Assembly (NCBI GenBank): GCA_963674595.2 | Contig: CAXXFV010000016.1 | Span: forward strand, 384,001 to 448,000 | From: a bacterium | GTDB lineage: Bacteria > Zhuqueibacterota > Zhuqueibacteria > Residuimicrobiales > Krinioviventaceae | Direction of reading: 5' to 3' | Length of the DNA: 64,000 bases | Part shown: positions 9,275-35,458 of the stretch, one piece after another | Layout of the letters: every line of letters begins with the position of its first letter | How positions within the stretch are numbered: the first letter of the stretch is position 1 | Notes under the pieces: model-generated | Told to the model about the DNA's origin: nothing | Seen by the model: the letters and a program-made list of their open reading frames with translations, nothing else | Databases searched by the model: none | Position numbers and translations under genes: made by a program

Positions 9275-9290
9275 TGGCACAAACTCTGCT
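9275..9290 (+). promoter_or_regulatory. Sigma54 -24/-12 promoter of the polysaccharide/surface-protein cluster
   Basis: TGGCACaaactCTGCT with exact GG-N10-GC spacing; an NtrC-family gene lies nearby. Confidence 0.7.
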
Positions 9291-9314
9291 AAATAGTAGG
9301 CAGTAAGAGATGAT

Positions 9315-9437
9315 AATGTGATAAAGCTGACTCGCCCAAGTCTTCAGGTTTTATCACATTTGGGTCATGTAAGAAGAATAATTGTTAGGCGGTTATAGTT
9401 TACCTCGAAAATATGCTTACCATTTATTCCTCTTTAC
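9315..9437 (+). ncRNA. Structured 5' leader motif (copy 2)
   Basis: Stem AATGTGATAAA/TTTATCACATT encloses GACT-CGCCCA-AGTC and is followed by TGGGTCATGTAAGAAGAATA. Same core as 8689-8753 but with a different stem sequence. Confidence 0.6.
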
Positions 9438-9571
9438 TAATCAAATTGTAATCAATCGGTAACCCAAAAACTTTGTTTAGCGGGTTCCCTCACGCGCCTG
9501 TCAAAATCAGTGAAATAAACAGGCATAAATTAACTCGTAGCACTCTTGTGCCGGGTGGAGGATGATGAATA

Positions 9572-10873
9572 GTGAGGAAAGAGAGAGGATTTAAAATGAA
9601 ATTTAAACTTAATTTAGCATCAAAGATACCTGCATTGATACTTGGCTTGTGCAACAATGTTAAAAGCTATCTTTTCATTTTTTTGGTTTTAAGCATAACC
9701 TCTCAGAATGTTTATTCTGGTGCCATTAAGGCAAATTGGGATGCCAATACAGAACCAGATCTAAAAGGTTATAAGCTCTATTATGGTACAGTTCCTTCAG
9801 ATTATTTGAATTGGGAAAGTGTAGACGTTGGTAATGTAAACAGTTATCTTGTTGGGAATTTGGACGAAAATGTAACTTATTATTTTGTTGTAACGGCTTA
9901 TGATTCTTCTGGAAATGAAAGTGCTCCCTCTGATGAAGTAAGTGCTCTGGTCACAGGACCGCAAGCCACTGCATCTGTGAGTGGAGATAGTATTATTGTA
10001 AGATGGACTTTTATTTTAGATGCAGACAGTTATGAAATTTTTCAGGGAACAGAACCTTTCTTTACACCGGGAACACCTGTTGCAACTATAACAGAAAACA
10101 GTTGGATTGATACTTCTTTCCCGCAGGTACCTGACACGGCTGCTTATTATATTGTTAAAGCTATGTCGGGTGGTTCAGTATCTCATACATTTAATACAAT
10201 CGGCGCTTATAACGTTCCCATTAAATATGGTAATAACCTTGTTTCGTTACCATTTGCACAGACAGATTCATCTTTGTGTGGTGTATTGGGAACACAGTTA
10301 CATGGAGCTACAAACGCCGTTCAGGCTGATAAAGTTTATATACGTGAAAATGATGCTTATTCGCAAGCATGGTTGGTTGAAGGAACAACCAGTCCTCTTG
10401 AAGGGAAATGGGTAACACCGGCTGGTGATGGTGAATCCACACTTAAAATTAATCCATCAGAATCATTTTGGATCATTAGTCGCTCAATAGAAGGGGACTC
10501 TCTATTTACAATGACCGGAACAGTAAATCCTGATTCTAATCGTGCTGTTTCACTTGTGCCCGGACCGAATTTTGTCTCTGTCCCTTATCCTGTAGAAGTC
10601 TCTTTAACCCAGGGCGGGCTTAATGAAGAAGGTGTGATCGAAGGTAGTTATTACCTGGCCGGATCTGATAAAGTTATGATGTGGACTGGAAGTAAATATG
10701 AAATTGCCTGGTTGGTTGACGGCACAAATACATCATGGGATGGAAAGTGGGTCAATGAAAGAGGCGACAGCGAAACCACAATGACTTTAAAACCAGGAAG
10801 AGGCTATATCATTTGGATTAAAAACGAAGGCCCTGCCAGAACCTGGAAGTTTCCAAATCCAAAGTATAATTGA
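9572..10873 (+). CDS. Secreted FN3-domain surface protein (start probably 9596)
   Basis: Signal-like N-terminus; FN3 segment WDANTEPDLKGYKLYYG...YYFVVTAYDSSGNES; two internal repeats (W..LVEGT...GKWV...G...LK). Confidence 0.8.
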   Translation: MRKERGFKMKFKLNLASKIPALILGLCNNVKSYLFIFLVLSITSQNVYSGAIKANWDANTEPDLKGYKLYYGTVPSDYLNWESVDVGNVNSYLVGNLDENVTYYFVVTAYDSSGNESAPSDEVSALVTGPQATASVSGDSIIVRWTFILDADSYEIFQGTEPFFTPGTPVATITENSWIDTSFPQVPDTAAYYIVKAMSGGSVSHTFNTIGAYNVPIKYGNNLVSLPFAQTDSSLCGVLGTQLHGATNAVQADKVYIRENDAYSQAWLVEGTTSPLEGKWVTPAGDGESTLKINPSESFWIISRSIEGDSLFTMTGTVNPDSNRAVSLVPGPNFVSVPYPVEVSLTQGGLNEEGVIEGSYYLAGSDKVMMWTGSKYEIAWLVDGTNTSWDGKWVNERGDSETTMTLKPGRGYIIWIKNEGPARTWKFPNPKYN

Positions 10874-10906: not shown

Positions 10907-11977
10907 ATGAGACATCAGTCATATTTTACTATAACCCTTTGGGTTGCCGTGCTTGCACTATTATTTGGTACGGCTTTGTTTGCAGGGCAAATTGATGCTT
11001 ATTCATTGACCGGAATTTATGACGTTGACGGAATAACCTATTTACAGGGTAATACCACATCCGGTGACCTGGTACAGTTGATCCTTGCAGGCGGAAATGG
11101 ACAGATTGATGAACCGGATACGCTGGGTAATGTAACAGGCGATGATGTGCTTTTAGGCACTTCTCATATCGGTTATGGGTTTCCATTTAATCCTAACGAA
11201 GGCAAATTTTCAACTACATTTACTAATGACCTGTTGGTTTCCGGAGCTGTTGTATACGTTCGTGCCTGGAATGTTGCTGCTGTTACAAGTTCAAATGATG
11301 CCTATGGTGATTCGGAACTGTATACTTTGAACAGTGATTTTGAAGAAAATGATTTCGGTACCTGGAGCTGTGTTGATCTTAACAGCACACCTGTTGAAAT
11401 GACCTCCTTTAAAGTCTCTACAAAATCCGGAGTAACCGTCCTTGAATGGACAACTCAAACAGAGACCGATAATTTGGGTTTTTATGTTTATCGTTCAAAA
11501 TACAAAACCGGTAAACGTGAACGTTTAAACAGTAAAATTATTCCTGGCGCAATTAATTCCGAAGTTCGTCATGATTATGAATTTGCAGATCGTAAAATAG
11601 AATCTCAAACTGAATATTATTATTGGATTGCTGATATATCTGTTAATGGAAGCGCCATTTTTCATGGTCCCCAGAAAATTGTAACAGCCGCCAAACCGGA
11701 TCAATACAAGCTTGATCAAAATTTCCCAAATCCTTTTAACCCGACAACAACCATTCAATATGCACTTAAAGATGATGGTTTTGTAAGTCTTCAGATTTTT
11801 AATATCCGCGGTCAGCTTGTTCGCAATTTAGTAAATTCAAATCAGTTCTCTGGTGAACATGCCATCATGTGGGATGGTATGTCGGATAACGGAATGCATG
11901 TGGCCTCCGGCATTTACTTTTTCCGAATTAAAGTAAATGACTATGTTGAAACACGAAAAATGTCTTTAATGAAATAG
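10907..11977 (+). CDS. Secreted protein with a FlgD-Ig/T9SS type-A-like C-terminal sorting domain
   Basis: AAGGAG RBS and signal peptide; PVEMTSF motif; C-terminus LDQNFPNPFNPTTTIQY...WDG...SGIYF...KMSLMK. Confidence 0.88.
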   Translation: MRHQSYFTITLWVAVLALLFGTALFAGQIDAYSLTGIYDVDGITYLQGNTTSGDLVQLILAGGNGQIDEPDTLGNVTGDDVLLGTSHIGYGFPFNPNEGKFSTTFTNDLLVSGAVVYVRAWNVAAVTSSNDAYGDSELYTLNSDFEENDFGTWSCVDLNSTPVEMTSFKVSTKSGVTVLEWTTQTETDNLGFYVYRSKYKTGKRERLNSKIIPGAINSEVRHDYEFADRKIESQTEYYYWIADISVNGSAIFHGPQKIVTAAKPDQYKLDQNFPNPFNPTTTIQYALKDDGFVSLQIFNIRGQLVRNLVNSNQFSGEHAIMWDGMSDNGMHVASGIYFFRIKVNDYVETRKMSLMK

Positions 11978-12079: not shown

Positions 12080-12925
12080 ATGCCTACTTTACTAAAAAAA
12101 ATTTTTTTTACTAACGATTATCAATATCACAGTTGTCAAAGATCATGTGTGTTGGGTAAAGGTGTGAGGGTAAACATGAAAACAAAGAGTATAAGATGGA
12201 TAAATTTGATTTTAACAACATCAATGATTTTATCCATGTCGTGTGCTATGCAAACTCGAAAGAGCAGCAGGCAAACAGCTAAAACAAAAGTAAATGCATC
12301 TCAGCCCGTTCAACAAAATTTTTCTAATAAAAAATTAGAGTATACTTTTGGATATGGGGATCAGATAGAAGTTAAATTTTTTAACAATTCGGATTATAAT
12401 GAAACTGTTAATGTTCGTCCGGATGGACGTATCTCTTTGCAGCGAGTTGGTGATATTCCTGTTGTTGGAATGACACCACGTCAATTAGATGACATTGTTA
12501 CTAAAATTTATAGTGAAATTCTTATTGACCCGGATGTAACAGTCCTCGTGCGTGAGTTCGGTGGTCAGGATGTTTATGTAATGGGTGAAGTGGACAAACC
12601 TGGTAAATATCCTGTCACAAAAGGGATGACACTGCTGCGTGCAATAGCGACAGCCGGTGGCCCCAAGAATACTGCAAAGTTAAACAGCATTGTTTTGATG
12701 CGAGGCGGTCCTGATCAGGCAACACAAGCGACACGCGTTAATTTGGAAATGTCTGCTATAAAAGAAAAACCATCTATTGATATTCCGGTTAATGCCTATG
12801 ACGTTATTTATGTCCCGCGTACATTTATCGCTGATGTCAACAAGTTTGTTGGTCAGGTGTATGATTTTGTGTTACCTCCATTTGATGTATGGTCCCGATA
12901 TACAATATATTCGGGTCGAAATTAG
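12080..12925 (+). CDS. wza: Polysaccharide export lipoprotein, Wza/OPX family (start probably 12176)
   Basis: Lipobox SMSC; YTFGYGDQIEV...VRPDGRISL; SLBB segment VYVMGEVDKPG. Confidence 0.9.
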   Translation: MPTLLKKIFFTNDYQYHSCQRSCVLGKGVRVNMKTKSIRWINLILTTSMILSMSCAMQTRKSSRQTAKTKVNASQPVQQNFSNKKLEYTFGYGDQIEVKFFNNSDYNETVNVRPDGRISLQRVGDIPVVGMTPRQLDDIVTKIYSEILIDPDVTVLVREFGGQDVYVMGEVDKPGKYPVTKGMTLLRAIATAGGPKNTAKLNSIVLMRGGPDQATQATRVNLEMSAIKEKPSIDIPVNAYDVIYVPRTFIADVNKFVGQVYDFVLPPFDVWSRYTIYSGRN

Positions 12926-12969: not shown

Positions 12970-14481
12970 ATGATAGAATATAGTCATTACGACAGTCCAA
13001 TGTCACCACATAGCTTTTTAAGCATTGTTCATAAACGGCGCATGTTGATTTTGACTTTATTTGTGCTGGTTGTCGGTGCGGCAACGGCTGCAGCATTTTT
13101 GCTGACTCCCGTTTATGAATCATCTGCAAAGGTGATGGTAAACTATCCGTATGATAATGAAAAAGCCCATTTATTGGGTTTAAACAATTCATCAAGTCGG
13201 CCGGAATATGATCGTTTGGCATCTGAGCTTGTTATTTTTAAAATGCGAAGTGTTTTGGAACCAGTCGTAAATAAATTAGCACTGGACCAACCTGTTGAAG
13301 GTGAACCGGTAACAACACCACAAGAAGCGGCACGTTTGCATGACGAAACGATTGCACGGGTGGCAAAAAAATTAAATGTAGAGCGTGAAAAAAATACAAA
13401 TATTTTAAACATAAGTTATCTGGATCCTGATCCACGATTAGCTGCCAATATCGTTGACAAAGTTGTTACGGAATATATTGAACAAAGACCCGCTTTAGAC
13501 CGTGACGATCGTGCCTACCAGTTTTTTGATGAACAAATTAATGAAATCAAAAGCCGAATTGATGACATGGAACGGAAACAAATGCACTACAAACGTCAGG
13601 AGCACGTGTTGTTGCCTGACCAACAGTCTCAAATTTTGTTTTCATCCTTGTCTGATTTTGACAGCGAATTAACCCAGGTTAGATCAAAACGTATTTCAAA
13701 AGAAGCCAAACTGAAAATTATCCGGGAACAAATTGCTTCCGGCAAAGACATTGCTATACCAACAACCGAAACAAGTGAAAGTACAAGCCGACACGAATAT
13801 TTGAATGAATTGAAAAAAACACTGTTAAAGCTTGAACTGAGAAAGGCAACTTTGGAGAAAAAATATACGGCAAAGCACCCGGATTTGGTCAATGTTGTGT
13901 CTGATATTCGTGAAACAAAACAAAGTTTGGAAAAAGAGGTCAATGAAATTATCCAGGCTGAAGAAGCCAGTATAAAAGCATTAATGGCCCAGGAACAAGC
14001 ACTTGTCGGAAGTATGAATCAGGTTGTTAATTCCGTTAAACATCTTTCTCAGCAAGAATACGAATTAGGCAAGTTGAGTATTGGAATTGACGATATGCGG
14101 ATGGTTTATTCAATGTTGTTACGTCAACGTGAAGAAGCAAGAATTTCCGCAAGTAAAAAAGAATATTTGGTTCAGGTCCGCTTGCTGGAACCCGCTCTTG
14201 TGCCGTATGCACCGGCAAAACCTAATAAACCTTTGTTTATTACATTGGGCTTTGTTCTTGGAATATTCGTTTCTTTTGGATTCGCGTTTTTCCTGGAATA
14301 TTTTGACCATTCTGTAAATACTGTTGAAGATGCTCATCACTGTCTTGGCCTTCCGATTTTGGCTGCCATACCGGATTTTCGTACAACAAATGGAAATGGT
14401 CATCAGCTTGAATCAAAGCACAACGGACAATATACCATTGATGAGAAAGTAATTTCTAAAGTAAAATTTGAAGAAGAATAG
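12970..14481 (+). CDS. Polysaccharide co-polymerase / chain-length determinant (GumC/Wzc N-terminal type)
   Basis: Two TM helices flank a coiled coil; TPVYESSA, YTAKHPDL and PAKPNK motifs. Confidence 0.9.
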   Translation: MIEYSHYDSPMSPHSFLSIVHKRRMLILTLFVLVVGAATAAAFLLTPVYESSAKVMVNYPYDNEKAHLLGLNNSSSRPEYDRLASELVIFKMRSVLEPVVNKLALDQPVEGEPVTTPQEAARLHDETIARVAKKLNVEREKNTNILNISYLDPDPRLAANIVDKVVTEYIEQRPALDRDDRAYQFFDEQINEIKSRIDDMERKQMHYKRQEHVLLPDQQSQILFSSLSDFDSELTQVRSKRISKEAKLKIIREQIASGKDIAIPTTETSESTSRHEYLNELKKTLLKLELRKATLEKKYTAKHPDLVNVVSDIRETKQSLEKEVNEIIQAEEASIKALMAQEQALVGSMNQVVNSVKHLSQQEYELGKLSIGIDDMRMVYSMLLRQREEARISASKKEYLVQVRLLEPALVPYAPAKPNKPLFITLGFVLGIFVSFGFAFFLEYFDHSVNTVEDAHHCLGLPILAAIPDFRTTNGNGHQLESKHNGQYTIDEKVISKVKFEEE

Positions 14482-14757: not shown

Positions 14758-15813
14758 ATGCGGAATTATCACGTTAATAAAATTAATTTTGAACTTTGTG
14801 AGGCCAACATGTACTTGAAACATTTTAAACTTAATGAAGAACCCTTTGGTTCAACACACGATCCCAGGTTTCTTTATAGAAGCGACATTCATCAGGACGC
14901 GTTGGATCGCTTGGTTACATCGGTTTCAATGATGCGCGGAATTAATGCCATCATCGGTGAGCCTGGTTTGGGGAAAAGCCTTTTGATTCGTACCCTGGTA
15001 AGCGGTCTTAACAAATCAGTGAATTTTGCGTGGGTTTTTAACACAACCTTAAATTCTCGTGAATTGATTAAGTATATTTGTCGCGATTTTGGATTCACCC
15101 CTAAAGGTGATGACTTGAGCGATTTGTTACTGGAACTGTACTCATTTTTGATTAAAGAATATGAAGCTGGAAAGACAAATGTTTTAATCGTTGATGAGGC
15201 CCAGAATTTAAAGCCGTCTGTTTTAGAAGAAATTCGGCAGTTGTCAAACATTGAAACAACGAAAAGAAAATTATTACAGGTCATTTTGTCCGGTCAACCG
15301 CAGTTGGATGTACATCTTGACCACCCGGCACTGCACCAACTAAAACAACGAATTACTTTTAAAGCAATTTTAAAACGACTGAAATTGCAGGATACCAAAC
15401 AATATATTTTACATCGGTTACAGGTTGCTGGTGCAAAACGTAATGATATTTTTACGGAAAAAGCAATGGAAGCCGTTTATAAAATATCAGACGGTGTGCC
15501 ACGGTTAATCAATCAGATTTGTGATAATGCGTTGATGGTAGCTGCTAAACGGAAAATGAAACAGATTGATTCCGTGCTTGTCATTGAACTTGTGGAGAAA
15601 AGTATCGTAACACCTGCAAGTTTAACTCCGGATTTGTCAAAATTGGCACAATACCAGGCACAGAAAAAAATTGTTTTGCGTAAAAAAACGTTTATAAAAA
15701 AATCTGCCAACCCTGTAATGCAGAATAAACCCAAGGCTTTTGAAGATATATCCCTCAAAGATTCGCTGGAAAGTTTTTCAGCTCTGAATCTTGGAGAGTT
15801 GGCAATTAATTAA
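14758..15813 (+). CDS. ExeA/GspA-family AAA ATPase (start probably 14809)
   Basis: YLKHFKLNEEPF, Walker A GEPGLGKS, Walker B LIVDEAQNL, GQPQL and GVPRLINQICDNAL. Confidence 0.9.
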   Translation: MRNYHVNKINFELCEANMYLKHFKLNEEPFGSTHDPRFLYRSDIHQDALDRLVTSVSMMRGINAIIGEPGLGKSLLIRTLVSGLNKSVNFAWVFNTTLNSRELIKYICRDFGFTPKGDDLSDLLLELYSFLIKEYEAGKTNVLIVDEAQNLKPSVLEEIRQLSNIETTKRKLLQVILSGQPQLDVHLDHPALHQLKQRITFKAILKRLKLQDTKQYILHRLQVAGAKRNDIFTEKAMEAVYKISDGVPRLINQICDNALMVAAKRKMKQIDSVLVIELVEKSIVTPASLTPDLSKLAQYQAQKKIVLRKKTFIKKSANPVMQNKPKAFEDISLKDSLESFSALNLGELAIN

Positions 15814-15863: not shown

Positions 15864-16784
15864 ATGAGTACAATCCATCAAATGATCAATCATCTGGACC
15901 AACAGGAACTAGAAAGCCGTCCACAGATTGAACAACAAAATAAAGAAAAACGCGGCATTTTTGTATTTGACTTGCCCAATGAGATTATAAATGATTTTTA
16001 TGATCTTAAAGAATATATCCGTATTGCCAATACTCAGGGAAAGATGCGGGTTTTGTCTATTGCCAGTTCATTGCCAGGAGAAGGTGCATCAACTATAGCG
16101 ACTTATCTTTCCTTTTTAATGGCTGGTGGATTAGTCGAAAAGTTGAATCAAAAAGAAGAGCTGCCAAAGGATGATTTTGTACAAAACAAAATTACCCAAA
16201 AATTAAACAAAATGTTTACAGAGGAATTTCAAAATATCCATTTTAATGTTCCTAAAAATAGTAAACACACGTTTGATTTTAATACTGAAGAAAAGGTACA
16301 AAGAAAAAAACAACAAAATATTCTTCTTGTTGATGCCAATATACATCGTCCAAAACTTCACCGATATTTTGGTTTGGAAGCGGATAATGGACTAGCTGAG
16401 ATTCTGGAGTTTAATAAAGATTGGCAGGATTTAGCCAAACCTATTAAAGACAGCAATCTTGAGATAATTACAGCCGGACAGACCTCCATGAACCCTGTAG
16501 AACTGTTGAGCCGTGAAAGTTTCCAGCAAGTTTTGCAGGAATGGCAGGACATGTATCGTTATGTCATATTTAACTCACCTCCGGTTTTATCTTATGTTGA
16601 TGCATTGACCCTTTCTTCTATCGTTGACGGTGTTGTTCTTGTTGTCAGTGCCGGAAAAACACGGTGGGAAGTTGCTCAAAATGCAAAACGTAAACTTTTG
16701 GCTGCACAGTCCAAACTTTTGGGTGTGGCCCTGAATAGACGAAAAATGGACATCCCTGACGGACTTTATCAACGACTCGTTTAA
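15864..16784 (+). CDS. CpsD/CapB-type BY-kinase homologue with degenerate catalytic motifs
   Basis: SSLPGEGAST, LLVDANIHRP, VIFNSPPVL and LGVALNR. Confidence 0.85.
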   Translation: MSTIHQMINHLDQQELESRPQIEQQNKEKRGIFVFDLPNEIINDFYDLKEYIRIANTQGKMRVLSIASSLPGEGASTIATYLSFLMAGGLVEKLNQKEELPKDDFVQNKITQKLNKMFTEEFQNIHFNVPKNSKHTFDFNTEEKVQRKKQQNILLVDANIHRPKLHRYFGLEADNGLAEILEFNKDWQDLAKPIKDSNLEIITAGQTSMNPVELLSRESFQQVLQEWQDMYRYVIFNSPPVLSYVDALTLSSIVDGVVLVVSAGKTRWEVAQNAKRKLLAAQSKLLGVALNRRKMDIPDGLYQRLV

Positions 16785-18306: not shown

Positions 18307-19115
18307 TGAACTCTAAGGAAATATCACGATTTATCGGTAAAAATATTCTGTTAAGGAAAATCGGTTTTTTTCTTATTTCCATAACAACCCTTCGTGAATG
18401 GTATATCCAAAAAGCACTGAACCAAATTCTTGCTCAAATTAACAAACCATTTGATTTTTTGGACGCCGGTAGTGGTATGGGACAACATGCAATTGATGTC
18501 GCTTCTACATTCCCAAATGCCCGGGTCACCGGTATAGAGCTGGACGAAGAACAAGTTCAGGACTGCAACTTTTTTGCACTGAAATCAGGATTGAAAAATT
18601 TCGAGTTTGTTCAGGGTGATTTGTCAAATTTTCAACAGGACAAAATGTATGACGTTATTTTGTGCGCCAGTGTTTTGGAACATATTTCAGATGATATGGG
18701 AACACTGACCCGCTTGAATAATACTTTAAAAAATAACGGTTATGTTTTGATATATGTGCCTTCCAGTGAACAACGGGTTTTGGCTTCTCTGGAACGTAAA
18801 ATTAATGCGATAACTGAAAAAGAAAATAAAAAATATCCTCATGAACATGTAAGATACTATAGTGAAGAAGAATTACATGAAAAGTTAAACAAAACAGGTT
18901 TTAACGTTATTGATTCGATTATTACTTATGGTTCCTTTGGACGTTTGGCTTATGATATTGTAACAAGCGTTCAGTACAGTTCATTATTTAAATATATTTT
19001 TCCGTTTTATTTAATGTTGGTCCATCCTTTTGTTATGCTGTTAATGTGGGCTGATTATAAAAGAAATAATAAAGACGGCAACGGTTTGATGATTGTTGCA
19101 CAGAAAAAAAATTAA
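18306..19115 (+). CDS. Class I SAM-dependent methyltransferase
   Basis: FLDAGSGMG, VLEHI and HVRYY. Confidence 0.88.
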   Translation: MNSKEISRFIGKNILLRKIGFFLISITTLREWYIQKALNQILAQINKPFDFLDAGSGMGQHAIDVASTFPNARVTGIELDEEQVQDCNFFALKSGLKNFEFVQGDLSNFQQDKMYDVILCASVLEHISDDMGTLTRLNNTLKNNGYVLIYVPSSEQRVLASLERKINAITEKENKKYPHEHVRYYSEEELHEKLNKTGFNVIDSIITYGSFGRLAYDIVTSVQYSSLFKYIFPFYLMLVHPFVMLLMWADYKRNNKDGNGLMIVAQKKN

Positions 19116-26911: not shown

Positions 26912-27937
26912 GTGGAGAATAGTGTGGTTGTTTTAAAATATTTCAAGTATGTAGCGATATGTGGATTTTTGTTGCTGGGCTGTTCCGAGGACAATCCGGT
27001 TGCCCCGGAAACAACCCGGCAATGGACCGCTGTTAACTCTGGTCTTACCAGCATGACGATCCAAGATATTGTCCCTGTTCCAGGAGCAGAGAACACGCTG
27101 TTTGCCGGGACTATTAATGGCGTTTTTAAAACCGAAAATGCCGGTGGTTCGTGGACTGATGTTTCAAATGATCTGGCCAGCAAAGATGCCCGTTGTCTTT
27201 TTGTGGACCCTAATGATGTTAATGTTATCTATTGTGGTACCCAGAGCAAGGGTGTTTTTAAATCTGTCAATTCCGGTCAATCATGGACATCTGTATGGAA
27301 AAGTGGTCAACATCCTTTGATTTATTCGCTTTTTGTCACATCCGGTGCCAATTCTGTTGTTTGGGCCGGCTCACAAAATGGTTTATATAAAAGTACCGAT
27401 GGCGGCCAAAACTGGACCCGGTCGTTTTTATATGGCGACGTTATTGCCGTTACAGCAAATCCGAATGATCCGAATGTTTTGTATATCGGCGTCGAGTATC
27501 AGGGTATATTTAAAACTACAGATGGCGGAGAAAATTGGAACGCTGTAAATACCGGTATTTTTAAAGGCAGTGATGGTTATGCAAGTGCGAATAGTTTTAT
27601 TGTAAATTCTGATAATGTGAACCAGGTAGTTATGAGCACCGGTAATGTTGACCTTTATAAAACAACCAATGCCGGACAAAGTTGGACGCAATTCGCCGAA
27701 ACACTGAATGGTTTAAAAGTTACTTCGCTAACAGTGAATCCGGCTAACTCGAAACAAATTCTGGCTGCAACAACCCAAAACGGTGTTTACCAAAGCACGG
27801 ATGCAGGTTCAAGCTGGAACGATATGAATACAGGACTGGAAACATTACAAATAAAGCGAATCTGTTTTGTGAAAGGTGAAAAATCCGCGTGTTATGCCGG
27901 AACGATTGGTAAAGGTGTTTATAAATATGTTTTTTAA
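26912..27937 (+). CDS. BNR/Asp-box beta-propeller lipoprotein (YCF48/VPS10-like)
   Basis: Lipobox LLGC; repeated GVFKS/T.DGG..W Asp-boxes. Confidence 0.8.
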   Translation: MENSVVVLKYFKYVAICGFLLLGCSEDNPVAPETTRQWTAVNSGLTSMTIQDIVPVPGAENTLFAGTINGVFKTENAGGSWTDVSNDLASKDARCLFVDPNDVNVIYCGTQSKGVFKSVNSGQSWTSVWKSGQHPLIYSLFVTSGANSVVWAGSQNGLYKSTDGGQNWTRSFLYGDVIAVTANPNDPNVLYIGVEYQGIFKTTDGGENWNAVNTGIFKGSDGYASANSFIVNSDNVNQVVMSTGNVDLYKTTNAGQSWTQFAETLNGLKVTSLTVNPANSKQILAATTQNGVYQSTDAGSSWNDMNTGLETLQIKRICFVKGEKSACYAGTIGKGVYKYVF

Positions 27938-29213
27938 AGATAACAATAATAAATATATTTTCGCTCTTTTAGTCCTTGGTTTGATTATTCGCGTTGGCTA
28001 TATTCTAACTTTGGAAAATTCTGTTTACTGGGAAGATGAAACCGACTATATGCGACTTTCCGAAAGTATTGTTACAGGTAATGGGTTTGTTAATCCCGAT
28101 GGACAGCCGACTGCATTTCGGGCCCCCGGTTATCCTGTGTTTTTAGCTGCTTTAAATGTTGTTGGTATAAAGGGTATCTTGCCTATTCGCATAGCACAAG
28201 CTTTTATTAGTGTATTAACACTATTTTTGCTGTATTTACTGGCCTGCCGTATTTTTAATCCGGTTGCCGGAATCGTTAGTTTGGGACTGGGAGCTGTTTA
28301 CCCTTATTTTATTTTTATTTCAGGTACGGTGCTGGCAACTGTATTATACAGTTTTCTTCTAGTACTCTTTGCTTATATATTTCATATTGCCCTTTCTGAA
28401 AAAAACAAATGGATGCTTTTGTTAAGCGGAATTGTCCTCGGTTTGACCATTCTTACCCGATCTGCAGCTTTGGTGATTTTAGGTGTCATTTTTTTATGGC
28501 TTTTTATTACTTTTCGAAAAGACCTCAAAATCTTTGCAGGTTATTCACTCCTGTTAACAGGAGCATGTTTAATTGTAATATCTCCCTGGATCGTTCGGAA
28601 TTACACAAAACTGAATGTTGCAAATATTTCTTCAAACGGCGGCAGAAATTTATGGCTGGGAAATAATAAAAATGCGACGATCAATTCCGGAAGTGATCTT
28701 GTTTTAACGGATAGAATTGAGAAAAAATTGCAATCGGTTCACAACGAAAGCGAAATAGATAATGTATATAATCACGAAGCGGTCCGGTATATCCGGGAAA
28801 ATCCCGGCCGGTTTTTGAAATTGACCCTGGCCAAGGCCGTTAGCTTTTGGCGTCTCGACCCATCACCTACAACAACAGGTTATCTGAAAATAGACTCTAA
28901 TATTCGTTGGGTGAGCATACTTTCTTATGGGCCAATATTTATTTTGGCCGTGTTAGGCTTTTTTATGATGCCCGATTCGAGCAGAAAATATGTGTTGTTT
29001 TGGGTTTTGTTTGCATGCAGTCAAATGCTGTTACACGCCGTTTATATCACAAAAGTGCGGTTTCGGTTACCGCTTGATCATTTTCTAATTTTTATCGCCG
29101 GATTTACAATTGTTTTCCTGGTTACTAAAATCAAGATGGCTTTAAGTGATTATAAAAAAGATTATATTGTTCCCTTGTCCTGGCAGACAATTAGTAAAAG
29201 CCGACATTGTTAA
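27876..29213 (+). CDS. GT-C fold (ArnT/PMT_2-like) membrane glycosyltransferase (start probably 27927)
   Basis: WEDETDY, AFRAPGYP, PWIVRNY and RFRLP; polytopic. Confidence 0.8.
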   Translation: MKNPRVMPERLVKVFINMFFKDNNNKYIFALLVLGLIIRVGYILTLENSVYWEDETDYMRLSESIVTGNGFVNPDGQPTAFRAPGYPVFLAALNVVGIKGILPIRIAQAFISVLTLFLLYLLACRIFNPVAGIVSLGLGAVYPYFIFISGTVLATVLYSFLLVLFAYIFHIALSEKNKWMLLLSGIVLGLTILTRSAALVILGVIFLWLFITFRKDLKIFAGYSLLLTGACLIVISPWIVRNYTKLNVANISSNGGRNLWLGNNKNATINSGSDLVLTDRIEKKLQSVHNESEIDNVYNHEAVRYIRENPGRFLKLTLAKAVSFWRLDPSPTTTGYLKIDSNIRWVSILSYGPIFILAVLGFFMMPDSSRKYVLFWVLFACSQMLLHAVYITKVRFRLPLDHFLIFIAGFTIVFLVTKIKMALSDYKKDYIVPLSWQTISKSRHC

Positions 29214-29293: not shown

Positions 29294-29527
29294 TTGCTTG
29301 ACATAGAATTTGAAAATGAAAATAAAGATATGGACGAAAACGTTAAAAAGGACCCGGTTCATGAAATACGTTCCATAACGCATGGACTGCTGGGGTATTT
29401 GGATATTTTTCTGGCTGAAATATACCCAAACCTGGAACCCAAAGATGTTGAACTCCTCGGGAAAATATATATCCACGTTAAGCGTTTGTCCTATTTAGTT
29501 TCAGAAAACCTGGGGAATAAAGAATAA
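29294..29527 (+). CDS. Small stand-alone HisKA/DHp-like protein
   Basis: HEIRSITHGLLGYLDI...ELLGKIYIHVKRLSYLV resembles a two-helix DHp. AGGAG lies before TTG 29294; alternative ATG at 29330. Confidence 0.55.
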   Translation: MLDIEFENENKDMDENVKKDPVHEIRSITHGLLGYLDIFLAEIYPNLEPKDVELLGKIYIHVKRLSYLVSENLGNKE

Positions 29528-29581: not shown

Positions 29582-32500
29582 TTGTATTTAGGAGTGATGA
29601 TGCTTATCCGGAACAAAATTCTCTTTTGTTTTATAATTGTTGTATTTGTACTTGTCGGTTCTTTGTTTGCTGCATCGGAGCAAGGTGTTACTATTGATGT
29701 TTTGCAGTCATCCGACAGCGTATTAAAATGTAAAGTACGGATTGATTCTGTTGTTTATCGTCAGGAACTGATAGATAAACAGTGGTTTTCTGTTTTAGAT
29801 ATTCCCGGCTGTGCTTTTTTATCGGAAACCGGCGTTCCAAAACTTCCGGTAAAAAGTATGACATTTGCCATTCCTGAAGGCAAAACGGCCCGGTTAACGG
29901 TTTTGGATCAAAATGTTATTAATAAAAATGATATATTGCTGCCGCCGGTACAGTCTCTTGCCCCCAAAACGTCTCCGATCAAGGATTTCACAATTACGAC
30001 TGGTAATTGGTTTCCCCAAAAAACCATCAACATCGGAATGACCGGATATGTTCGCGAACAGCATATCCTTCAGGTAGAGTTTTTCCCGGTCCGATATCTG
30101 GCTGATGCAAAATTGGTCCAGATCATCAAGAGCATAACTTTTCAAATTGATTTCATCGATTCCAACAGCGATTCTAAAAAATCAATTACCCGGGATGCGC
30201 AGTTTAATTCTATTTTAAAACATAATCTGGCAAATTTTTCAGCTACCTCAAAAAGCAGCAAGCTGCTTTCATCTCCTTTGAAAACGTTTAAAACATCTGA
30301 TGTGTCCGGTGTTAAATATAAAATTTCTATAAAAACAGACGGCGTTTATGTTATTACCGGGCAGCAGCTTGCTGATGCCGGTGCTGATTTAGCGCAAATT
30401 TCCCCTTCATTATTATCGCTCGCTAATAAAGGTATACATGTCCCGATTATTGTGGAAGGTGATGGTGACGGCACCTTTGACAAAGAAGACCGTATTCTGT
30501 TTTACGGTGAACACAACCGTGGCGACGATTCCTATTATTCTTATTTTTCAGATACAAATGTTTACTGGCTTTCCTGGGACGGCACGCCGGGTGCACGCTT
30601 TGCCGACGTAACTGCTGCGGCAGATGAGGCTGTTCAGGATACTATAACCTATGCAAAAACTAAAGAACATCGTGAAAACGATTTAAGGTATGATCAGTTA
30701 TTATCCTGGGCTGATGGCGAAGGCGACCATTGGTTTTGGCAGCAAATCCAGGACGGACAGGATTATAGTTTCAATTTACCGGGTGGAACACATCTCGGTG
30801 ATCATCCGGTTCGGGTTCGTATCGGCTTAAATGGTCTTACAAATCCAACAGTTTCACCAGATCATCATTTGATTGTAAAACTGGACGAGGAGGAGATCGG
30901 TAATGTCTATTGGGACAACCAGGAAAGTTATATCTTTGATTCCGGGTATATAAATAGTGCAAATTTGCAGGAAAAGGAACAGCTGGTTTTATCCATTCCG
31001 GGAGATATTGCGGGTGCCGCTAATGATCACATGTTGTTGAACTGGATAGAATTTGAATTAACCAGTGAGCTGGCGGCAGAAGACGATTTTCTTTCATTTA
31101 TACACACCGGCTATGTGGCAAGTATGTATAAAATGACCAATTTCAGTGATGATAAGGTTTATCTCTTGTCCCCTGATGGTTATCGTTATACAGACGTCTC
31201 GTTTGAAAATGAAAAAGGTGTCTATTCGTTTTATTTTAAAATTCGCTCTAATCTTGATATTCCGCTTGTTGCCGTTTCTGAACGACGGCTAAAATCTGTT
31301 TCTTCTATTCAAAAAGTTGAAATGTCTAATTTAAAAAGTACGTCGAATGGTGCTGATTATATTATTATCACCCATCCGGATTTTGAAAAGCAGGCACAGG
31401 AATTGGCCGATTTTCGTGCTACCCAAAATTTGAGGACAAAGGTTGTAGATATTTACGATATTTATAACGAATTTTCTTTTGGAAACTATGATCCCCGGGC
31501 GGTTAAATATTTTATTAAATATGCTTATGAAAACTGGACATCTCCGGCCCCGTTATATATTTTGTTGTTTGGAGATACGTCCCGATACATGGATAAAAAT
31601 CCTTCTACAGAAGAAGGTTTTAAATCCTATGTTCCGACAATGATGGTATATACTGTCACATGGGGTATGACATCCAGTGATAATTATTTTGCTGCCGTCA
31701 GCGGTTCGGATGATCTCCCGGATTTGCATATTGGCCGTTTTCCTGCTAATACGGCAGAAGAAGCCCAGGCAATGGTGGATAAAACAATCAGCCATGAAAA
31801 ACAACAGGCCATTGATAGCTGGCGCCGTAATGTTTGTTTATTAACAGGAAATGGCGAGTTTTTTGAAACAAGCGCCCAATATTTATATGATTATTATATT
31901 CCTCAATACATGGTGACAAACAGGGTCGCTACCTTACCATCTTCGCGTTATTTTGGAAGCACAGAAAACGTAGCCGATTATTTAAACGCTGGTCAGGCTG
32001 TTTTAAATTTTATCGGCCACGGCGGTGGCGGTGTTTATTTTGATTCGGAATTGTTCCTGCCTGAAGATGTGGAACGTTTGACCAACAAGGATAAATATCC
32101 TGTTGTATTTAGTATGACATGTTTTACCGGGTCTTTTGCAAACCCGGAGGAACAGTCGTTGGCAGAAATTTTACTGCGTTCTCCTGATAAAGGTGTTGTC
32201 GCTCATTTTGGTTCCGCTGGTCGGGCATATCTTTATGGTGATTACTTTTTAAACAATGCGCTTTTTCAGGCACTGTTTGATTATAAAATGCAAACAGTCG
32301 GCGAGGTTTGCACCTATGGTAAAATAGAAATGGTCAATCAGACCAAAAGTTATTATGATCATGTAAAAAATTATATTCTTATGGGTGATCCGGCAACACG
32401 TTTTCATTTTGCACCTGATGAAATTAATTTAACGCTTTCAAAAAATATTGTTATCGACGGCGACAAGCTCATGGTAACAGGAACTATTCCCGGCTCTGTG

Positions 32501-34411
32501 AACGGAAATGTTCTTTTGAGTGTTTATAATAACCTTGATTCACTGTTGGTGGAAAAAAGCGTCACTGCTTCCAATGGTACCTTTTCTGTTGAAGTGTTGA
32601 CTGTTGATGCCGGTTTTAGAAACGGTTGGAAAACCGGCCATGGACAGGGTATTGTCAGGGCATATTTTAACAACGATCAGTCAGATGCAGCCGGTTCTGT
32701 CTCATTTAGTTTAAATGAAGCCTTTTTGTCAAAATATTATACAACTCCGGCCGGCCCCAGCCATAATGAAGAGGTCATGTTTTTTGCAGAACTTGATCCG
32801 GAAAATCATGCTGATGTCGGTGGTTTAGATTCCGTTTATGTCAAATGGACCACAAATAACCAGGACTGGATTAAAATAAGCATGACCGAAACATCGGGAG
32901 GAATTTGGAAATCCGATTCATCTTTGGTTAAAGCAGAGGGAACAAGAGTTTTTTACCAGATCATTGTTAAAGCTAAAAATGGTACTGTTTTTGAAAGCGC
33001 TGTGTCAGAATATATGGTAAAAAAACGTGCTGATTTAACGTTTGTGCGAGATAGTATTTTTATTGTCGGTTCAGATAATGTCAGAATTGCTTTAAAAATC
33101 AGGAATAAAGGCGAAACAGATTGTGGGGCGTTTGCCGTTCGTGCCAGCATCAAGTCAGAAACGGATGAACCGCAACCGATTTCTTCGGACGTTAATGTCG
33201 CCGGTTTAAAGGCCTTATCAGATACATTGATTCAGGTAGACTGGCCGGCCGCAACAGCCGGGTATAATGAGTTTATGGCGCAAGTGGATGTTTTGGGCCA
33301 GGTCGATGAATCGGCTGAGCTGAACAATATGGTGGATTTTAATCTCAATGTTGTAACTAAAGAAAATGGCACAAACGGTATTGTAACAGATTTAAAAAAT
33401 AATTTTCAGGTAGAAATTCCTCAAAACAGTTTTAATAAAAATATCTCTGTTAAATTTGAACGAATGGAGAATGATCAATATTTAAAAACCGCACGACAAT
33501 TATCTTTAACACCTGTTCGGTTTCGAAACGAAACCTATTGGACGGTTTACCGTATTCAGTTTTCCGATTCTACAATTAAAAGTACGAAACCGTTCAAGGT
33601 AACGGCATATTTTGATAAACTGGACAGTGCTTATATTAATTTATCTGATCCGGGAAATGCGTTCAAGATTTTTGCCTGGCAAGAGAGTACGGAAACATGG
33701 TTGGGGCTCGCAAGTCAAGTCAACCTTGCAGATGGCAGCGTTGCCGCTAATTTGCCACAGGAGTACAGTGTTTTTACGGTTATGGCGAGCAATGATGGGA
33801 ATGCCCCAATAATCAGCATCGGCTTGGAAGGACAGCATCTGGCTGATAATGATATTGTGAGTCCCCGACCTGTTTTTGTCATTACTTTTCAGGATTCTTC
33901 CGGATTTAATTTGGGAAATTCACCATTTACTTTGTTCATGGATGACGAGCAAATTTCTGATGACCAGTTTGTATTGTCCTATGATCAACAAACAAAAAAC
34001 CAGGTTGTTCTGACTTTTAAAAGTGAACTCGAATATGGTGATCATGAAATTACTGTCCGGGCTGTGGATATTCATGGTAATTCGTCTGAACAGTCTGTTG
34101 CTTTTTCCATTTCCGGTGAATTTAAATTGGCAGCTATTGCCAACCATCCCAATCCTTTTGCTGATGAAACCGTCATCGCTTTTACGTTGACAGGAATGGC
34201 AAAAGAAGTAAAACTAGATATCTATACCGTTTCCGGAAGAATGATCCGTTCTTATGAATTTATTGATATTTCCGGATATTGGGAGCAGGACTGGGACGGA
34301 AGAGATGAAGATGGTAATGAAGTTGCAAACGGCGTTTATTATTTAAAATTTGTTGCAAAAAATGACTCAAAAACTATTGAACAAATTGAAAAAATGGCCA
34401 AGCTGAAATAG
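29582..34411 (+). CDS. Peptidase C25 (gingipain/PorU-like) with propeptide, CARDB and FlgD-Ig C-terminal domain
   Basis: Propeptide GVPKLP; ADYIIITH, YILLFGD, SDNYF, IGRFP, catalytic-type FIGHGG and SMTC, YILMGDP; C-terminal NHPNPF...WDGRD...NGVY. Confidence 0.88.
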   Translation: MYLGVMMLIRNKILFCFIIVVFVLVGSLFAASEQGVTIDVLQSSDSVLKCKVRIDSVVYRQELIDKQWFSVLDIPGCAFLSETGVPKLPVKSMTFAIPEGKTARLTVLDQNVINKNDILLPPVQSLAPKTSPIKDFTITTGNWFPQKTINIGMTGYVREQHILQVEFFPVRYLADAKLVQIIKSITFQIDFIDSNSDSKKSITRDAQFNSILKHNLANFSATSKSSKLLSSPLKTFKTSDVSGVKYKISIKTDGVYVITGQQLADAGADLAQISPSLLSLANKGIHVPIIVEGDGDGTFDKEDRILFYGEHNRGDDSYYSYFSDTNVYWLSWDGTPGARFADVTAAADEAVQDTITYAKTKEHRENDLRYDQLLSWADGEGDHWFWQQIQDGQDYSFNLPGGTHLGDHPVRVRIGLNGLTNPTVSPDHHLIVKLDEEEIGNVYWDNQESYIFDSGYINSANLQEKEQLVLSIPGDIAGAANDHMLLNWIEFELTSELAAEDDFLSFIHTGYVASMYKMTNFSDDKVYLLSPDGYRYTDVSFENEKGVYSFYFKIRSNLDIPLVAVSERRLKSVSSIQKVEMSNLKSTSNGADYIIITHPDFEKQAQELADFRATQNLRTKVVDIYDIYNEFSFGNYDPRAVKYFIKYAYENWTSPAPLYILLFGDTSRYMDKNPSTEEGFKSYVPTMMVYTVTWGMTSSDNYFAAVSGSDDLPDLHIGRFPANTAEEAQAMVDKTISHEKQQAIDSWRRNVCLLTGNGEFFETSAQYLYDYYIPQYMVTNRVATLPSSRYFGSTENVADYLNAGQAVLNFIGHGGGGVYFDSELFLPEDVERLTNKDKYPVVFSMTCFTGSFANPEEQSLAEILLRSPDKGVVAHFGSAGRAYLYGDYFLNNALFQALFDYKMQTVGEVCTYGKIEMVNQTKSYYDHVKNYILMGDPATRFHFAPDEINLTLSKNIVIDGDKLMVTGTIPGSVNGNVLLSVYNNLDSLLVEKSVTASNGTFSVEVLTVDAGFRNGWKTGHGQGIVRAYFNNDQSDAAGSVSFSLNEAFLSKYYTTPAGPSHNEEVMFFAELDPENHADVGGLDSVYVKWTTNNQDWIKISMTETSGGIWKSDSSLVKAEGTRVFYQIIVKAKNGTVFESAVSEYMVKKRADLTFVRDSIFIVGSDNVRIALKIRNKGETDCGAFAVRASIKSETDEPQPISSDVNVAGLKALSDTLIQVDWPAATAGYNEFMAQVDVLGQVDESAELNNMVDFNLNVVTKENGTNGIVTDLKNNFQVEIPQNSFNKNISVKFERMENDQYLKTARQLSLTPVRFRNETYWTVYRIQFSDSTIKSTKPFKVTAYFDKLDSAYINLSDPGNAFKIFAWQESTETWLGLASQVNLADGSVAANLPQEYSVFTVMASNDGNAPIISIGLEGQHLADNDIVSPRPVFVITFQDSSGFNLGNSPFTLFMDDEQISDDQFVLSYDQQTKNQVVLTFKSELEYGDHEITVRAVDIHGNSSEQSVAFSISGEFKLAAIANHPNPFADETVIAFTLTGMAKEVKLDIYTVSGRMIRSYEFIDISGYWEQDWDGRDEDGNEVANGVYYLKFVAKNDSKTIEQIEKMAKLK

Positions 34412-34420
34412 GAGTGATGT

Positions 34421-35458
34421 GTGGATAACAGGGTTATAAATAGATTATATTTGAAAATATGTTGTTGCTTTCTGATTTTTCTTTTAATTCTGCCTAAAAA
34501 ATCTATAGGTGGTGAATATGCGGCTGACTTTTTGAATATCGGGGTTGGGGCCCGTGCTTTGGGAATGGGCGGCGCTTTTGTTGCATTGGCAAATGATGCA
34601 TCCGCTTTTTACTGGAATCCGGCCGGTATGACCTGGATAAAAAAAATGTCGTTTCATTTTGATCATACACCCATGTTTGACGGATTGGCACAATATAACA
34701 CTCTTAACGCTACCATGGGGATAGACCAGCACATGGCTTTTGCCGTCAGTTGGATTCGTCTCGGTGTTGATGAAATCCCGAGATATTCTTCACTCCAGGG
34801 AACACGATATGATCGTTATACCAATAATCAATATCGGTCTACCGGGGAGGCAGAAGGCTATTTTAATGATACGGAAGATGCGGTGATGGTATCTTTTAGC
34901 CGCACAGAGTTTTTTGATGTTTATTGGGGCGGCGGATTTGAACCTCGAAAAATTCCCTTTGAAATTGCCTTTGGTGTAACAGGGAAATATATCCGCCACC
35001 GGCTGGATGCATCGACCGGAACAGGACAGGGGATTGATGCCGGTGTTATTATCCGGACATTTCATGAAAATGTTGTTTACGGCGAACCGGAAATGTGGGC
35101 CGGTGTTGGCTTGTCGATTAAAGACCTTTCACGTACCCGGATTGTTTGGGATACAGCTTCCAATCATAAAGATGATGTAAAAACCGGAGCACAACTTGGT
35201 TTCACCGGTTCGAAATATTTTTCGCGTTTAAAATCCAGAACAACATTATCTGTTGACCGTGAATTTGGCAAATTTGAAGAATGGCATTTTGGTGCAGAGT
35301 TGCTAGTTTATAACACGGTTGCCGTAAGAGGTGGTTATTATAATGATGAAATGACAGCTGGTGCCGGAATTTCACTGTTTGGTTTTACCATCGACTATGC
35401 CTTTGTTCCCGGTGATCTTGCCAATACACATCGTGTTTCGGGTGCTTTTTCCTTTTAG
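34421..35458 (+). CDS. PorV/PorQ-family (FadL-like) outer-membrane barrel
   Basis: FLNIGVGARALGMGGAFVALANDASAFYWNPAG; C-terminal THRVSGAFSF. Confidence 0.88.
   Translation: MDNRVINRLYLKICCCFLIFLLILPKKSIGGEYAADFLNIGVGARALGMGGAFVALANDASAFYWNPAGMTWIKKMSFHFDHTPMFDGLAQYNTLNATMGIDQHMAFAVSWIRLGVDEIPRYSSLQGTRYDRYTNNQYRSTGEAEGYFNDTEDAVMVSFSRTEFFDVYWGGGFEPRKIPFEIAFGVTGKYIRHRLDASTGTGQGIDAGVIIRTFHENVVYGEPEMWAGVGLSIKDLSRTRIVWDTASNHKDDVKTGAQLGFTGSKYFSRLKSRTTLSVDREFGKFEEWHFGAELLVYNTVAVRGGYYNDEMTAGAGISLFGFTIDYAFVPGDLANTHRVSGAFSF

Follow-up and report, generated by a model that had tools for sequence, protein, structure and literature searches.

A PorU-like C25 peptidase and a PorV-like barrel at the end of a sigma-54-associated surface-polysaccharide locus of candidate division KSB1

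The peptidase–barrel pair and its operon

The window considered here is a stretch of 64,000 nt from contig CAXXFV010000016.1 (assembly GCA_963674595.2), part of a 6.6-Mb genome in 37 contigs that is 97.6 % complete and belongs to a group identified by named records as candidate division KSB1. Positions 9275–35458 form a single co-directional block on the + strand, the strand of every feature of the locus and of its adjoining regulatory genes given below. The block is a Wzx/Wzy-type polysaccharide operon whose last two genes encode a PorU-like C25 cysteine peptidase (29582–34411, 1609 aa) and a PorV/PorQ-family outer-membrane barrel (34421–35458). Annotation was based on a listing of open reading frames (ORFs) and on Pfam and NCBIfam profile scans, which recovered every element that an earlier note on this DNA had named. 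The best account of it is a surface-polysaccharide locus of Wzx/Wzy-dependent type under sigma-54/NtrC control, akin to the loci of the XrtA (exosortase)/PEP-CTERM type.

The peptidase, whose true start is likely near 29597, is made up of a propeptide, a C25 domain, a CARDB domain, Ig-like domains and a C-terminal domain (CTD) of its own. Peptidase_C25 is matched at 303 bits, Propeptide_C25 at 76 bits, and the CTD reaches 24.5 bits with TIGR04183 (cut-off 23). The motifs FIGHGG and SMTC are visible in the translation, and the catalytic His813 and Cys847, together with the CTD core, are invariant in all 14 aligned orthologues; the intact His and Cys motifs read earlier from the letters are thus borne out. 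The PorU model NF033707 gives 410.1 bits, just under its cut-off of 420, and aligns over positions 4–749, well beyond the C25 domain. Among sequences of solved structures the best match was PorU of P. gingivalis (6za2, E 9.9e-30), with gingipain R at 3e-15. The PorV-like gene starts 10 bp after the peptidase gene; its product exceeds the cut-off of the NF033709 subfamily (106.6 vs 90 bits) and scores 37.5 bits with the PorV equivalog NF033710 (cut-off 250) and 33.4 bits with PorQ (cut-off 220).

A search of the genome for other porU and porV copies and for sprA, as proposed in the earlier note, returned a canonical PorU, a further PorU-like/PorV-like pair, many PorV-family barrels and a single SprA gene. 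Three PorU-type proteins were found in all. The canonical PorU (contig C15, about 880 bits, 1337 aa) shares the propeptide, C25 and CTD architecture of the window protein; the gene 3′ of it encodes a DUF2961 protein, not PorV. The third is a long PorU-like paralogue on contig C4 (345 bits) with a PorV-family gene next to it. This C4 pair (L010:1890-7552; PorU-like proteins of 1545–1611 aa) sits among dapA, murD, lysC, murA and murB, with no polysaccharide genes, and two proteins of no family come after it. Thus, PorU-like/PorV-like pairs need no exopolysaccharide (EPS) context. The PorU-model search gave 8 rows from C25-type proteins and 44 matches restricted to the sorting-domain part, one of the latter being the CTD of a 476-aa C25-type ORF on contig C16; the genome therefore appears to encode many CTD cargoes. 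The PorV/PorQ family is represented by 30 matches, 19 of them above the cut-off, or about 24 barrels, and the best of these (contig C8, 116307–117323, 313 bits) is probably the housekeeping PorV. The comparisons support the view that the window pair is a dedicated paralogue and not the housekeeping type IX secretion system (T9SS) machinery.

A C25 tree of 47 rows (quick IQ-TREE search, LG+G4, SH-like approximate likelihood ratio test (SH-aLRT) only) takes as its root a divergent C25 class about 1900 aa long and holds no gingipain or Bacteroidota PorU rows. The canonical PorU proteins of KSB1, Zixibacteria and other metagenome-assembled genomes form one clade (SH-aLRT 99), and the long paralogues form a second (98) that is sister to it. 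Within the second clade the 14 operon-linked KSB1 proteins make up one group (100) and the C4-type proteins another (100). The earlier note had named a grouping with degradative gingipains as an outcome that would speak against its reading; the solved-structure search and the sister position to canonical PorU, in a tree without gingipain rows, instead place the protein with PorU. The C4-type orthologues are a separate clade that includes paralogues from Zixibacteria and genome G044. The outgroup is a fourth C25 class of about 1900–1970 aa (L109, L112, L115; genomes G008, G021 and G040), which matches the window protein over residues ~560–955, the catalytic domain, only.

Two surface proteins are encoded at the head of the operon. 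One is a membrane-anchored protein (9596–10873, alternative start 9572; Pfam fn3) with an N-terminal helix, two FN3 and two further beta domains and no CTD, modelled with a predicted local distance difference test (pLDDT) score of 87.9 and a predicted template modelling score of 0.78. The other (10907–11977, model pLDDT 84.7) has a signal peptide, three beta-sandwich domains and a C-terminal T9SS type-A CTD (TIGR04183 41 bits, cut-off 23), and is the first candidate cargo of the sortase pair. Both are conserved, at a mean column identity of 42 % for the CTD protein and 49 % for the FN3 protein. Fold searches gave generic FN3/Ig matches for the CTD protein, topped by the C-terminal domains of PorU, and generic FN3 matches only for the FN3 protein in the PDB; no enzyme fold was found in either model. 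The CTD protein of genomes G009 and G004 has a duplicated N-terminal domain (L017:12941-14491, L021:5150-6670).

When the PorV-like barrel was predicted in complex with the CTD of the C25 protein, the score was 0.92, the best of three controls being 0.00; the mark used is one that 116 of 157 solved complexes attain, as do 2 of 215 mismatched pairs. Contact agreement between runs was at least 97 %, partner pLDDT was at least 92, and the predicted contacts fall on residues invariant in both alignments. The barrel is thus predicted to bind the CTD of its C25 neighbour, a prediction that does not address which CTDs it prefers. Since PorV–CTD complexes have already been solved (PMC10994853), the pass may reflect mere likeness to them.

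The genes between the head proteins and the pair supply a Wzx/Wzy-dependent pathway set. Export and chain-length functions are represented by a Wza-type outer-membrane polysaccharide export protein (12080–12925; Poly_export and SLBB), a polysaccharide co-polymerase or chain-length determinant without a kinase domain (12970–14481; Wzz and GNVR), an ExeA/GspA-like AAA ATPase of XrtA-system type (14758–15813; AAA_22), present as one copy in the source genome, and a separate bacterial tyrosine kinase (BY-kinase) homologue (15864–16784; TIGR01007 106 bits, below cut-off). A Wzy_C-domain membrane protein (16807–18306; Wzy_C 62.5 bits, TIGR03097 32.6 bits) may be polymerase or ligase, and a Wzx-type flippase follows at 19131–20555 (Polysacc_synt 78.7 bits). 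The XrtA accessory set that had been recognized in this cluster is present in so far as the XrtA-system families are best or near-best matches, yet every score lies below its cut-off: 106 of 180 bits for TIGR03027 (Wza), 181 of 279 for TIGR03007 (chain length), 237 of 324.5 for TIGR03015 (ATPase) and 105 of 231 for TIGR03018 (kinase). The window export proteins are therefore related to the XrtA families without being members, and the sensor kinases upstream are AtoS-like, not PrsK.

The block also encodes a SAM-dependent methyltransferase (18306–19115; Pfam), a GT2 glycosyltransferase (20562–21545), a first GT4 glycosyltransferase (21569–22822), a PaaK/F390-synthetase-like AMP-dependent ligase (22806–24158; NCBIfam), a nucleotide-sugar 6-dehydrogenase (24183–25505; TIGR03026 419 bits, cut-off 190) and a second GT4 glycosyltransferase (25486–26895), the three glycosyltransferases being recognized by both Pfam and NCBIfam. 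A BNR/Ycf48-like beta-propeller protein (26912–27937; Sortilin-Vps10 and PSII_BNR; F510_1955 family 117 bits, below cut-off) and a PMT_2 membrane glycosyltransferase of ArnT-like, GT-C type (27876–29213; PMT_2 43.6 bits) come next. The propeller could be thought of as a counterpart of PorZ, but a match would be given by any propeller of seven blades. What the earlier note had taken for a 369-bp gap upstream of the peptidase gene is occupied by a conserved 77-aa ORF (29294–29527). No priming phosphoglycosyl transferase was found inside the operon with Pfam or NCBIfam; the nearest Bac_transf gene lies on contig C16 at 372621–373184, about 11 kb upstream of the window. Three further enzymes, namely the Wzy_C protein, PMT_2 and the AMP-dependent ligase, could also couple glycan to something.

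Two more co-directional genes occupy 35990–39790, past the PorV-like gene; one product has 482 aa and matches no family, and the other is a Big_2/CTD protein of 754 aa (Pfam, NCBIfam). In the neighbourhoods of relatives no matches to these two genes were found after the PorV-like gene. The only strong terminator-like hairpin, a 10-bp stem followed by a T run (39797–39820; terminator scan), lies downstream of both, so the operon may extend beyond 35458.

Conservation of the locus and the place of exosortase

Relatives in each of the order's five families have a window-type orthologue of about 1600 aa and 35–46 % identity. Matches with E no higher than 1e-180 came from 50 of the phylum's 167 genomes, namely in G000 and 39 of the 42 other genomes of its own order, in all 4 genomes of family f6, in 4 of 14 in f12 and in 2 of 10 in f14. 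When 26 window proteins were mapped onto 13 neighbourhoods from four families, the second GT4, the BNR protein and the PorV-like barrel were co-linear in all 13, and the dehydrogenase and PMT_2 genes in 12 each (missing from G009 and G026, respectively). The second GT4, at 57–70 % identity, is the best conserved glycosyltransferase of the locus, while the AMP-dependent ligase is confined to 5 neighbourhoods, all of family f1. The full run from the regulators to the PorV-like gene is kept in 10 of the 13, at 35–65 % protein identity; the contig of G031 ends within the locus. The gap between PMT_2 and the peptidase gene is 36–90 bp in three genomes, and in G021 and G026 other genes (5–9 kb) lie between GT4 and BNR.

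Likewise, in named KSB1-type loci, the PorV-like gene lies 3′ of the peptidase gene in 32 of 32 with downstream sequence, and BNR (27/27) and PMT_2 (23/27) lie 5′ of it; 11 of these loci come from genomes that are also among the 13 neighbourhoods, so that the two sets of counts are not independent. A conserved locus, real and beyond chance, is confirmed.

In genera g9 and g4 (genomes G008 and G017) the locus is split. The closed genome G008 has the half from the kinase to GT4 at 2.06 Mb and the half with the AMP-dependent ligase, dehydrogenase, GT4, BNR, PMT_2, peptidase and PorV-like genes at 4.30 Mb. The pair has thus stayed with the dehydrogenase, GT4, BNR and PMT_2 genes and is 2.2 Mb away from Wza and the ATPase. 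Physical linkage to the export genes is therefore dispensable, and the linkage of the pair to EPS genes on which the earlier reading depended holds order-wide but not in these two genera.

Outside KSB1, 14 distant loci were found at 23–31 % identity of the C25 protein. The PorV-like gene is next in 12 of the 13 that have downstream sequence, the other being L087 of Fibrobacterota. At least two of the Wza, chain-length, ATPase and kinase genes lie beside the pair in 5 of the 14, in three arrangements, and canonical PorU is present above its cut-off in 4 of the 5 genomes concerned. The locus of Zixibacteria SM23_81 runs from PrsK and PrsR, across some 6 kb of intervening genes, to PorU-like, PorV-like, epimerase, Wza, chain length, ATPase and kinase, with PrsK (411, cut-off 300), PrsR (587, cut-off 503) and the XrtA-system ATPase (330, cut-off 324.5) all above threshold. 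A phylogenetic profile of 124 genomes outside the order counted the orthologue in 10, the ATPase in 20 (with the unpublished G163, on which no conclusion depends) and both in 9, where about 1.6 would be expected if the two were independent. Since the co-occurrence is confined to three families, it stands for no more than three independent events. Orthologue and ATPase lie 16–19 kb apart on the same strand in four of the co-occurring genomes.

No exosortase was matched in the source genome (PF09721, TIGR04178), and its one PEP-CTERM match (TIGR02595, 27.6 bits) is on another contig; an exosortase with PEP-CTERM targets, which would have told against the earlier reading, was thus not seen. An exosortase-type domain was found in none of the 43 genomes of the order, 29 of which are at least 90 % complete. 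Four of the five non-KSB1 genomes with an export-linked pair, their completeness being unknown, are likewise without a match; one of them, G047, has 24 PEP-CTERM matches, and its exosortase may therefore be unassembled or missed.

The exception is G044, in which an exosortase lies on the same contig (C5, 47.6 kb) and strand as the PorU-like/PorV-like pair. This co-directional locus (L121, L120, L089) contains a TIGR03097-type ligase, a WbpS-type amidotransferase (764 bits, cut-off 817), a VimE-like deacetylase, a FemAB/VimA-family protein (381, cut-off 260), the exosortase (TIGR02602 193, cut-off 106), an stp1 glycosyltransferase (462, cut-off 317) and a priming transferase, as well as PrsK, PrsR, the PorU-like/PorV-like pair, Wza, chain-length, ATPase and kinase genes. 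Exosortase and PorU-like sortase can therefore coexist in one locus. The earlier description of sorting parts of T9SS type ‘instead of an exosortase’ accordingly stands for the KSB1 order but not elsewhere.

Regulatory region and leader

The regulatory part upstream takes in two AtoS-like kinase ORFs, one with PAS and HisKA domains (4014–5228; Pfam HisKA, NCBIfam AtoS 97 bits) and one with HATPase_c (5478–6539), followed by an NtrC-type sigma-54 activator with receiver, AAA+ and HTH_8 domains (6561–7994; Sigma54_activat 227 bits) and a receiver-only response regulator of 139 aa (8251–8670; Response_reg 48.5 bits). The best NCBIfam matches of the activator are AtoC (413 bits) and PEP_resp_reg (PrsR; 369 bits, cut-off 503), and the PrsK model gives 23.6 bits on the kinases against a cut-off of 300. 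In relatives the activator is 58–78 % identical, the second kinase adjoins it as well (tblastn matches, often as a tandem pair), and the receiver-only regulator is kept between the activator and the FN3 gene.

A sigma-54 type promoter with −24 GG and −12 GC lies at 9275–9290, one mismatch from TGGCAC-N5-TTGCW, and directly precedes the two surface-protein genes, the candidate cargo end of the operon. By the rule applied (GG-N10-GC, at most 2 mismatches to consensus; 9,045 nt scanned), 11 of 12 loci, all but that of G040, have such a site 5′ of their FN3 gene, against 0.5–1.3 expected, and rpoN is encoded in the source genome. A sigma-54 promoter with a neighbouring NtrC-type activator, as read earlier from the sequence, is thereby upheld. 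PMC1569441 reports a sigma-54 motif 5′ of PEP-CTERM cargo genes in Proteobacteria, to which the position of the window site before candidate cargo genes would be a parallel. Two other candidate sites were dropped: 8179–8194, which lacks the −12 GC and has no counterpart in that intergenic region in any relative, and an identical 16-mer 5′ of the peptidase gene in G008 and G017, which falls within the 77-aa ORF. Where the locus is split, the 1 kb 5′ of the AMP-dependent ligase gene showed no site of sigma-54 type.

A nested hairpin occurs twice in the 6.6-Mb genome and only here, 3′ of the receiver gene (8688–8745) and in the leader about 35 nt past the promoter (9315–9372). Its invariant inner part consists of GACU, the loop CGCCCA and AGUC, and its outer stem of 10–14 bp varies in sequence by copy. 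G001, G002 and G004 each have a single copy 3′ of the receiver gene, and all five copies share one fold (z −2.4 to −3.5). A pseudoknot reading of the leader element was rejected, the second stem being lost in G002 and G001, and the nested hairpin alone is supported. The window has no Rfam match at gathering score, and 8000–9700 none up to E 1. In the leader the hairpin may serve as an attenuator or be bound by a protein.

The 77-aa ORF just 5′ of the peptidase gene, present in 10 of the 13 neighbourhoods and in 24 named loci, carries a histidine-kinase H-box without an ATPase domain, that is, a stand-alone domain like that of dimerization and histidine phosphotransfer (HisKA E 0.009, below cut-off), and has one copy in the source genome. 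As an idea only, a phosphorelay resembling Spo0F/Spo0B might be made up of this ORF, the NtrC-type activator, the kinases and the receiver-only regulator. A second sigma-54 activator in the window (44364–45721), preceded by a full kinase gene (42967–44361), consists of two overlapping ORFs, with receiver and AAA+ at 44364–45407 and lid and helix-turn-helix at 45224–45721, suggesting a frameshift or an assembly error.

Interpretation and significance

A close described counterpart of the pair is the T9SS attachment complex of P. gingivalis (PorU, PorV, PorQ, PorZ), for which anionic lipopolysaccharide (A-LPS) is given as a substrate of PorU and PorV as the carrier of type-A cargo in PMC12365241 and PMC10994853. 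Both have a C25 protein with propeptide, His and Cys residues and a CTD of uncleaved type, an adjacent PorV/PorQ-family barrel, CTD-bearing cargo (candidate cargo in the window) and a Wzx/Wzy-type glycan pathway as the presumed source of the acceptor, and PorU is the closest solved relative of the window protein. In contrast to P. gingivalis PorU, the window protein is an extra paralogue beside a canonical PorU, about 270 residues longer and at 410 bits against the cut-off of 420. Its pair lies inside an export operon with Wza, co-polymerase, BY-kinase and ExeA-like ATPase genes under putative sigma-54 control, PorZ and Wbp/Vim genes were not recognized in the window locus, and the host belongs to KSB1 and not to Bacteroidota.

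The resemblance to XrtA/PEP-CTERM loci covers the export, chain-length, ATPase and kinase proteins and several glycosyltransferases, which match XrtA-system NCBIfam families best or nearly so, the sigma-54 activator with its site 5′ of putative cargo genes, and, in idea, a C-terminal sorting signal processed by a transpeptidase alongside polysaccharide production. In Zixibacteria and G044 the PorU-like pair even lies inside loci with PrsK, PrsR and ATPase above the XrtA cut-offs. However, the window candidate for the sortase is an outer-surface C25 peptidase whereas exosortase is an inner-membrane protein with eight transmembrane segments, the order has no exosortase in 43 genomes, and the window kinases are AtoS-like. 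PMC1569441 sets a threshold of more than two PEP-CTERM cargo proteins for an XrtA system; the source genome has one lone match.

Paralogous PorU/PorV pairs are known to curators as NCBIfam PorU2 (NF052324) and PorV2 (NF052325), a putative second type IX sorting system, but the window pair, at 281 bits against a cut-off of 450 and 112 against 325, does not belong to these families. Matches to ‘PorU2/PorV2’ in literature text proved to be superscript citation numbers, not gene names. In the literature searched, no description was found of type IX secretion in KSB1, nor of a locus that brings PorU together with exosortase or exopolysaccharide in this way.

Taken together, the best-supported reading, to which we give an even chance, is a T9SS-type attachment module in XrtA-type polysaccharide loci, the sole sortase type in KSB1 and present beside exosortase elsewhere, in which the PorU-like C25 peptidase and the PorV-like barrel would be dedicated to the glycan of this very locus. 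On this reading, the kinase or kinases and the NtrC-type activator would switch on the sigma-54 promoter at 9275, and the operon would yield two beta-sandwich surface proteins, the export and polymerization machinery, sugar-building enzymes and the sortase pair. CTD proteins, the product of 10907–11977 being the first candidate, would pass the outer membrane via the single SprA translocon, and the PorV-like barrel would hold the sortase paralogue through its uncleaved CTD. The sortase would then cut off the cargo CTD and join the newly formed C-terminus to an acceptor, itself part of the glycan that the dehydrogenase, GT4 and PMT_2 enzymes would make, giving a protein-decorated capsule, sheath or matrix. 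We infer covalent attachment of CTD proteins to the locus polysaccharide by transpeptidation, and likewise which proteins are the cargo and what the acceptor is.

In P. gingivalis and T. forsythia, enzymes of VimA, VimE and WbpS type build the amine-bearing linking sugar that serves as PorU's cargo acceptor, and Veith et al. assign these enzyme types to PEP-CTERM-system families (PMC7468200). The G044 locus unites a PorU-like sortase with the same enzyme types, and by analogy may share this chemistry.

Several results weigh against dedication to the locus glycan. No VimA, VimE or WbpS homologue was found in the window operon with NCBIfam and no pathway for an amine-bearing acceptor sugar in the window locus, and the FemAB-like matches of the genome are weak (at most 61 bits, cut-off 260) and lie in a neighbourhood of lipopolysaccharide-core genes. 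The split in g9 and g4 and the C4 pair without polysaccharide genes around it count on the same side, as does the fact that a PorV-like neighbour is not rare in a genome with about 24 such barrels. Nine of the 14 non-KSB1 loci have no export genes in the available flanks, several of these being short contigs but L080 and L087 having 10 kb upstream. Additionally, the operon-linked sortases of other phyla fall in three places of the tree (3 changes), which speaks neither for nor against a single origin of the linkage, in a quick LG+G4 search with a divergent C25 root and no gingipain or Bacteroidota PorU rows.

Some of these results would also suit a second T9SS attachment or processing complex that is merely co-regulated with the polysaccharide, handling a subset of CTD cargo in a biofilm or capsule programme and joining it to lipopolysaccharide or another anchor, or releasing it, with no covalent link to the locus polymer. 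Three PorU-type proteins and about 24 PorV-family barrels suggest a division of labour among cargoes, the C4 pair manages without polysaccharide genes, the locus splits without loss of either half, and the operon yielded no match to an acceptor-sugar pathway. However, the pair keeps the company of the dehydrogenase, GT4 and PMT_2 genes when the locus splits, other phyla too have it linked to export genes, with the genes differently arranged, and in G044 it shares a locus with VimA/VimE/WbpS-type enzymes; mere co-regulation is regarded as rather unlikely, though of the alternatives it is the one to be taken most seriously. A position held by descent within one order, without any bearing on the polysaccharide, is very improbable. 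Relatives do inherit a common gene order, a single taxonomic order supplies most of the loci, and the split in two genera demonstrates that the pair need not be linked to the export genes, but the gene order is kept across four families at just 35–65 % protein identity, the association recurs outside the phylum in different gene orders, and the interval between PMT_2 and the peptidase gene is as short as 36–90 bp in three genomes.

The C25 protein might alternatively be no transpeptidase but a secreted processing or degradative protease, itself a T9SS cargo with a PorV-like shuttle, whose part would be the maturation or turnover of matrix proteins or of the operon's own two surface proteins. 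It resembles the gingipains RgpB and Kgp in that their catalytic domain and N-terminal pro-domain are detectable as relatives and in that both are T9SS cargo with a CTD, and the gingipain-type propeptide (Propeptide_C25 76 bits) and the additional CARDB and Ig-like domains typical of secreted enzymes could be read in the same way. Yet the canonical PorU of the genome has the identical propeptide, C25 and CTD architecture, which is therefore no mark of a degradative enzyme. The similarity to gingipains is weaker than that to PorU (3e-15 vs 9.9e-30), a region of PorU type precedes the C25 domain, with the 410-bit alignment running far past that domain, and the tree places the protein as sister to canonical PorU. 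The PorV-family gene that follows in 32 of 32 KSB1-type and 12 of 13 distant loci, as for an attachment pair, is a further difference from the gingipains, and a purely proteolytic role is considered improbable.

Dedication to the locus glycan, if correct, may be part of something older. Tentatively, and with doubt as to the whole, the KSB1, Zixibacteria and neighbouring-phyla loci could represent an old second type IX sorting branch, in which a PorU-type sortase and a PorV-type barrel serve an exported polysaccharide and not lipopolysaccharide. Locus and regulators would be common to this branch and to exosortase/PEP-CTERM systems, and so, probably, would the acceptor chemistry, in which enzymes of VimA/FemAB, VimE and WbpS type make an aminoacyl sugar. 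The two would be alternative front ends to one protein-to-glycan coupling pathway, coexisting in G044, with the exosortase fully replaced in the KSB1 order.

To our knowledge, the acceptor of exosortase cargo is still unknown, and the attachment step of T9SS has been elucidated in two oral Bacteroidota only, and there for lipopolysaccharide. If true, the reading of a second sorting branch would join two sorting systems so far kept separate and would hint at the acceptor of exosortase cargo, the G044 locus being a concrete and testable bridge between T9SS and exosortase sorting. The set of BNR, PMT_2, C25 and PorV-like genes provides a marker for finding such systems in metagenomes, and protein-decorated capsules or sheaths would be predicted in KSB1 and related uncultured phyla.

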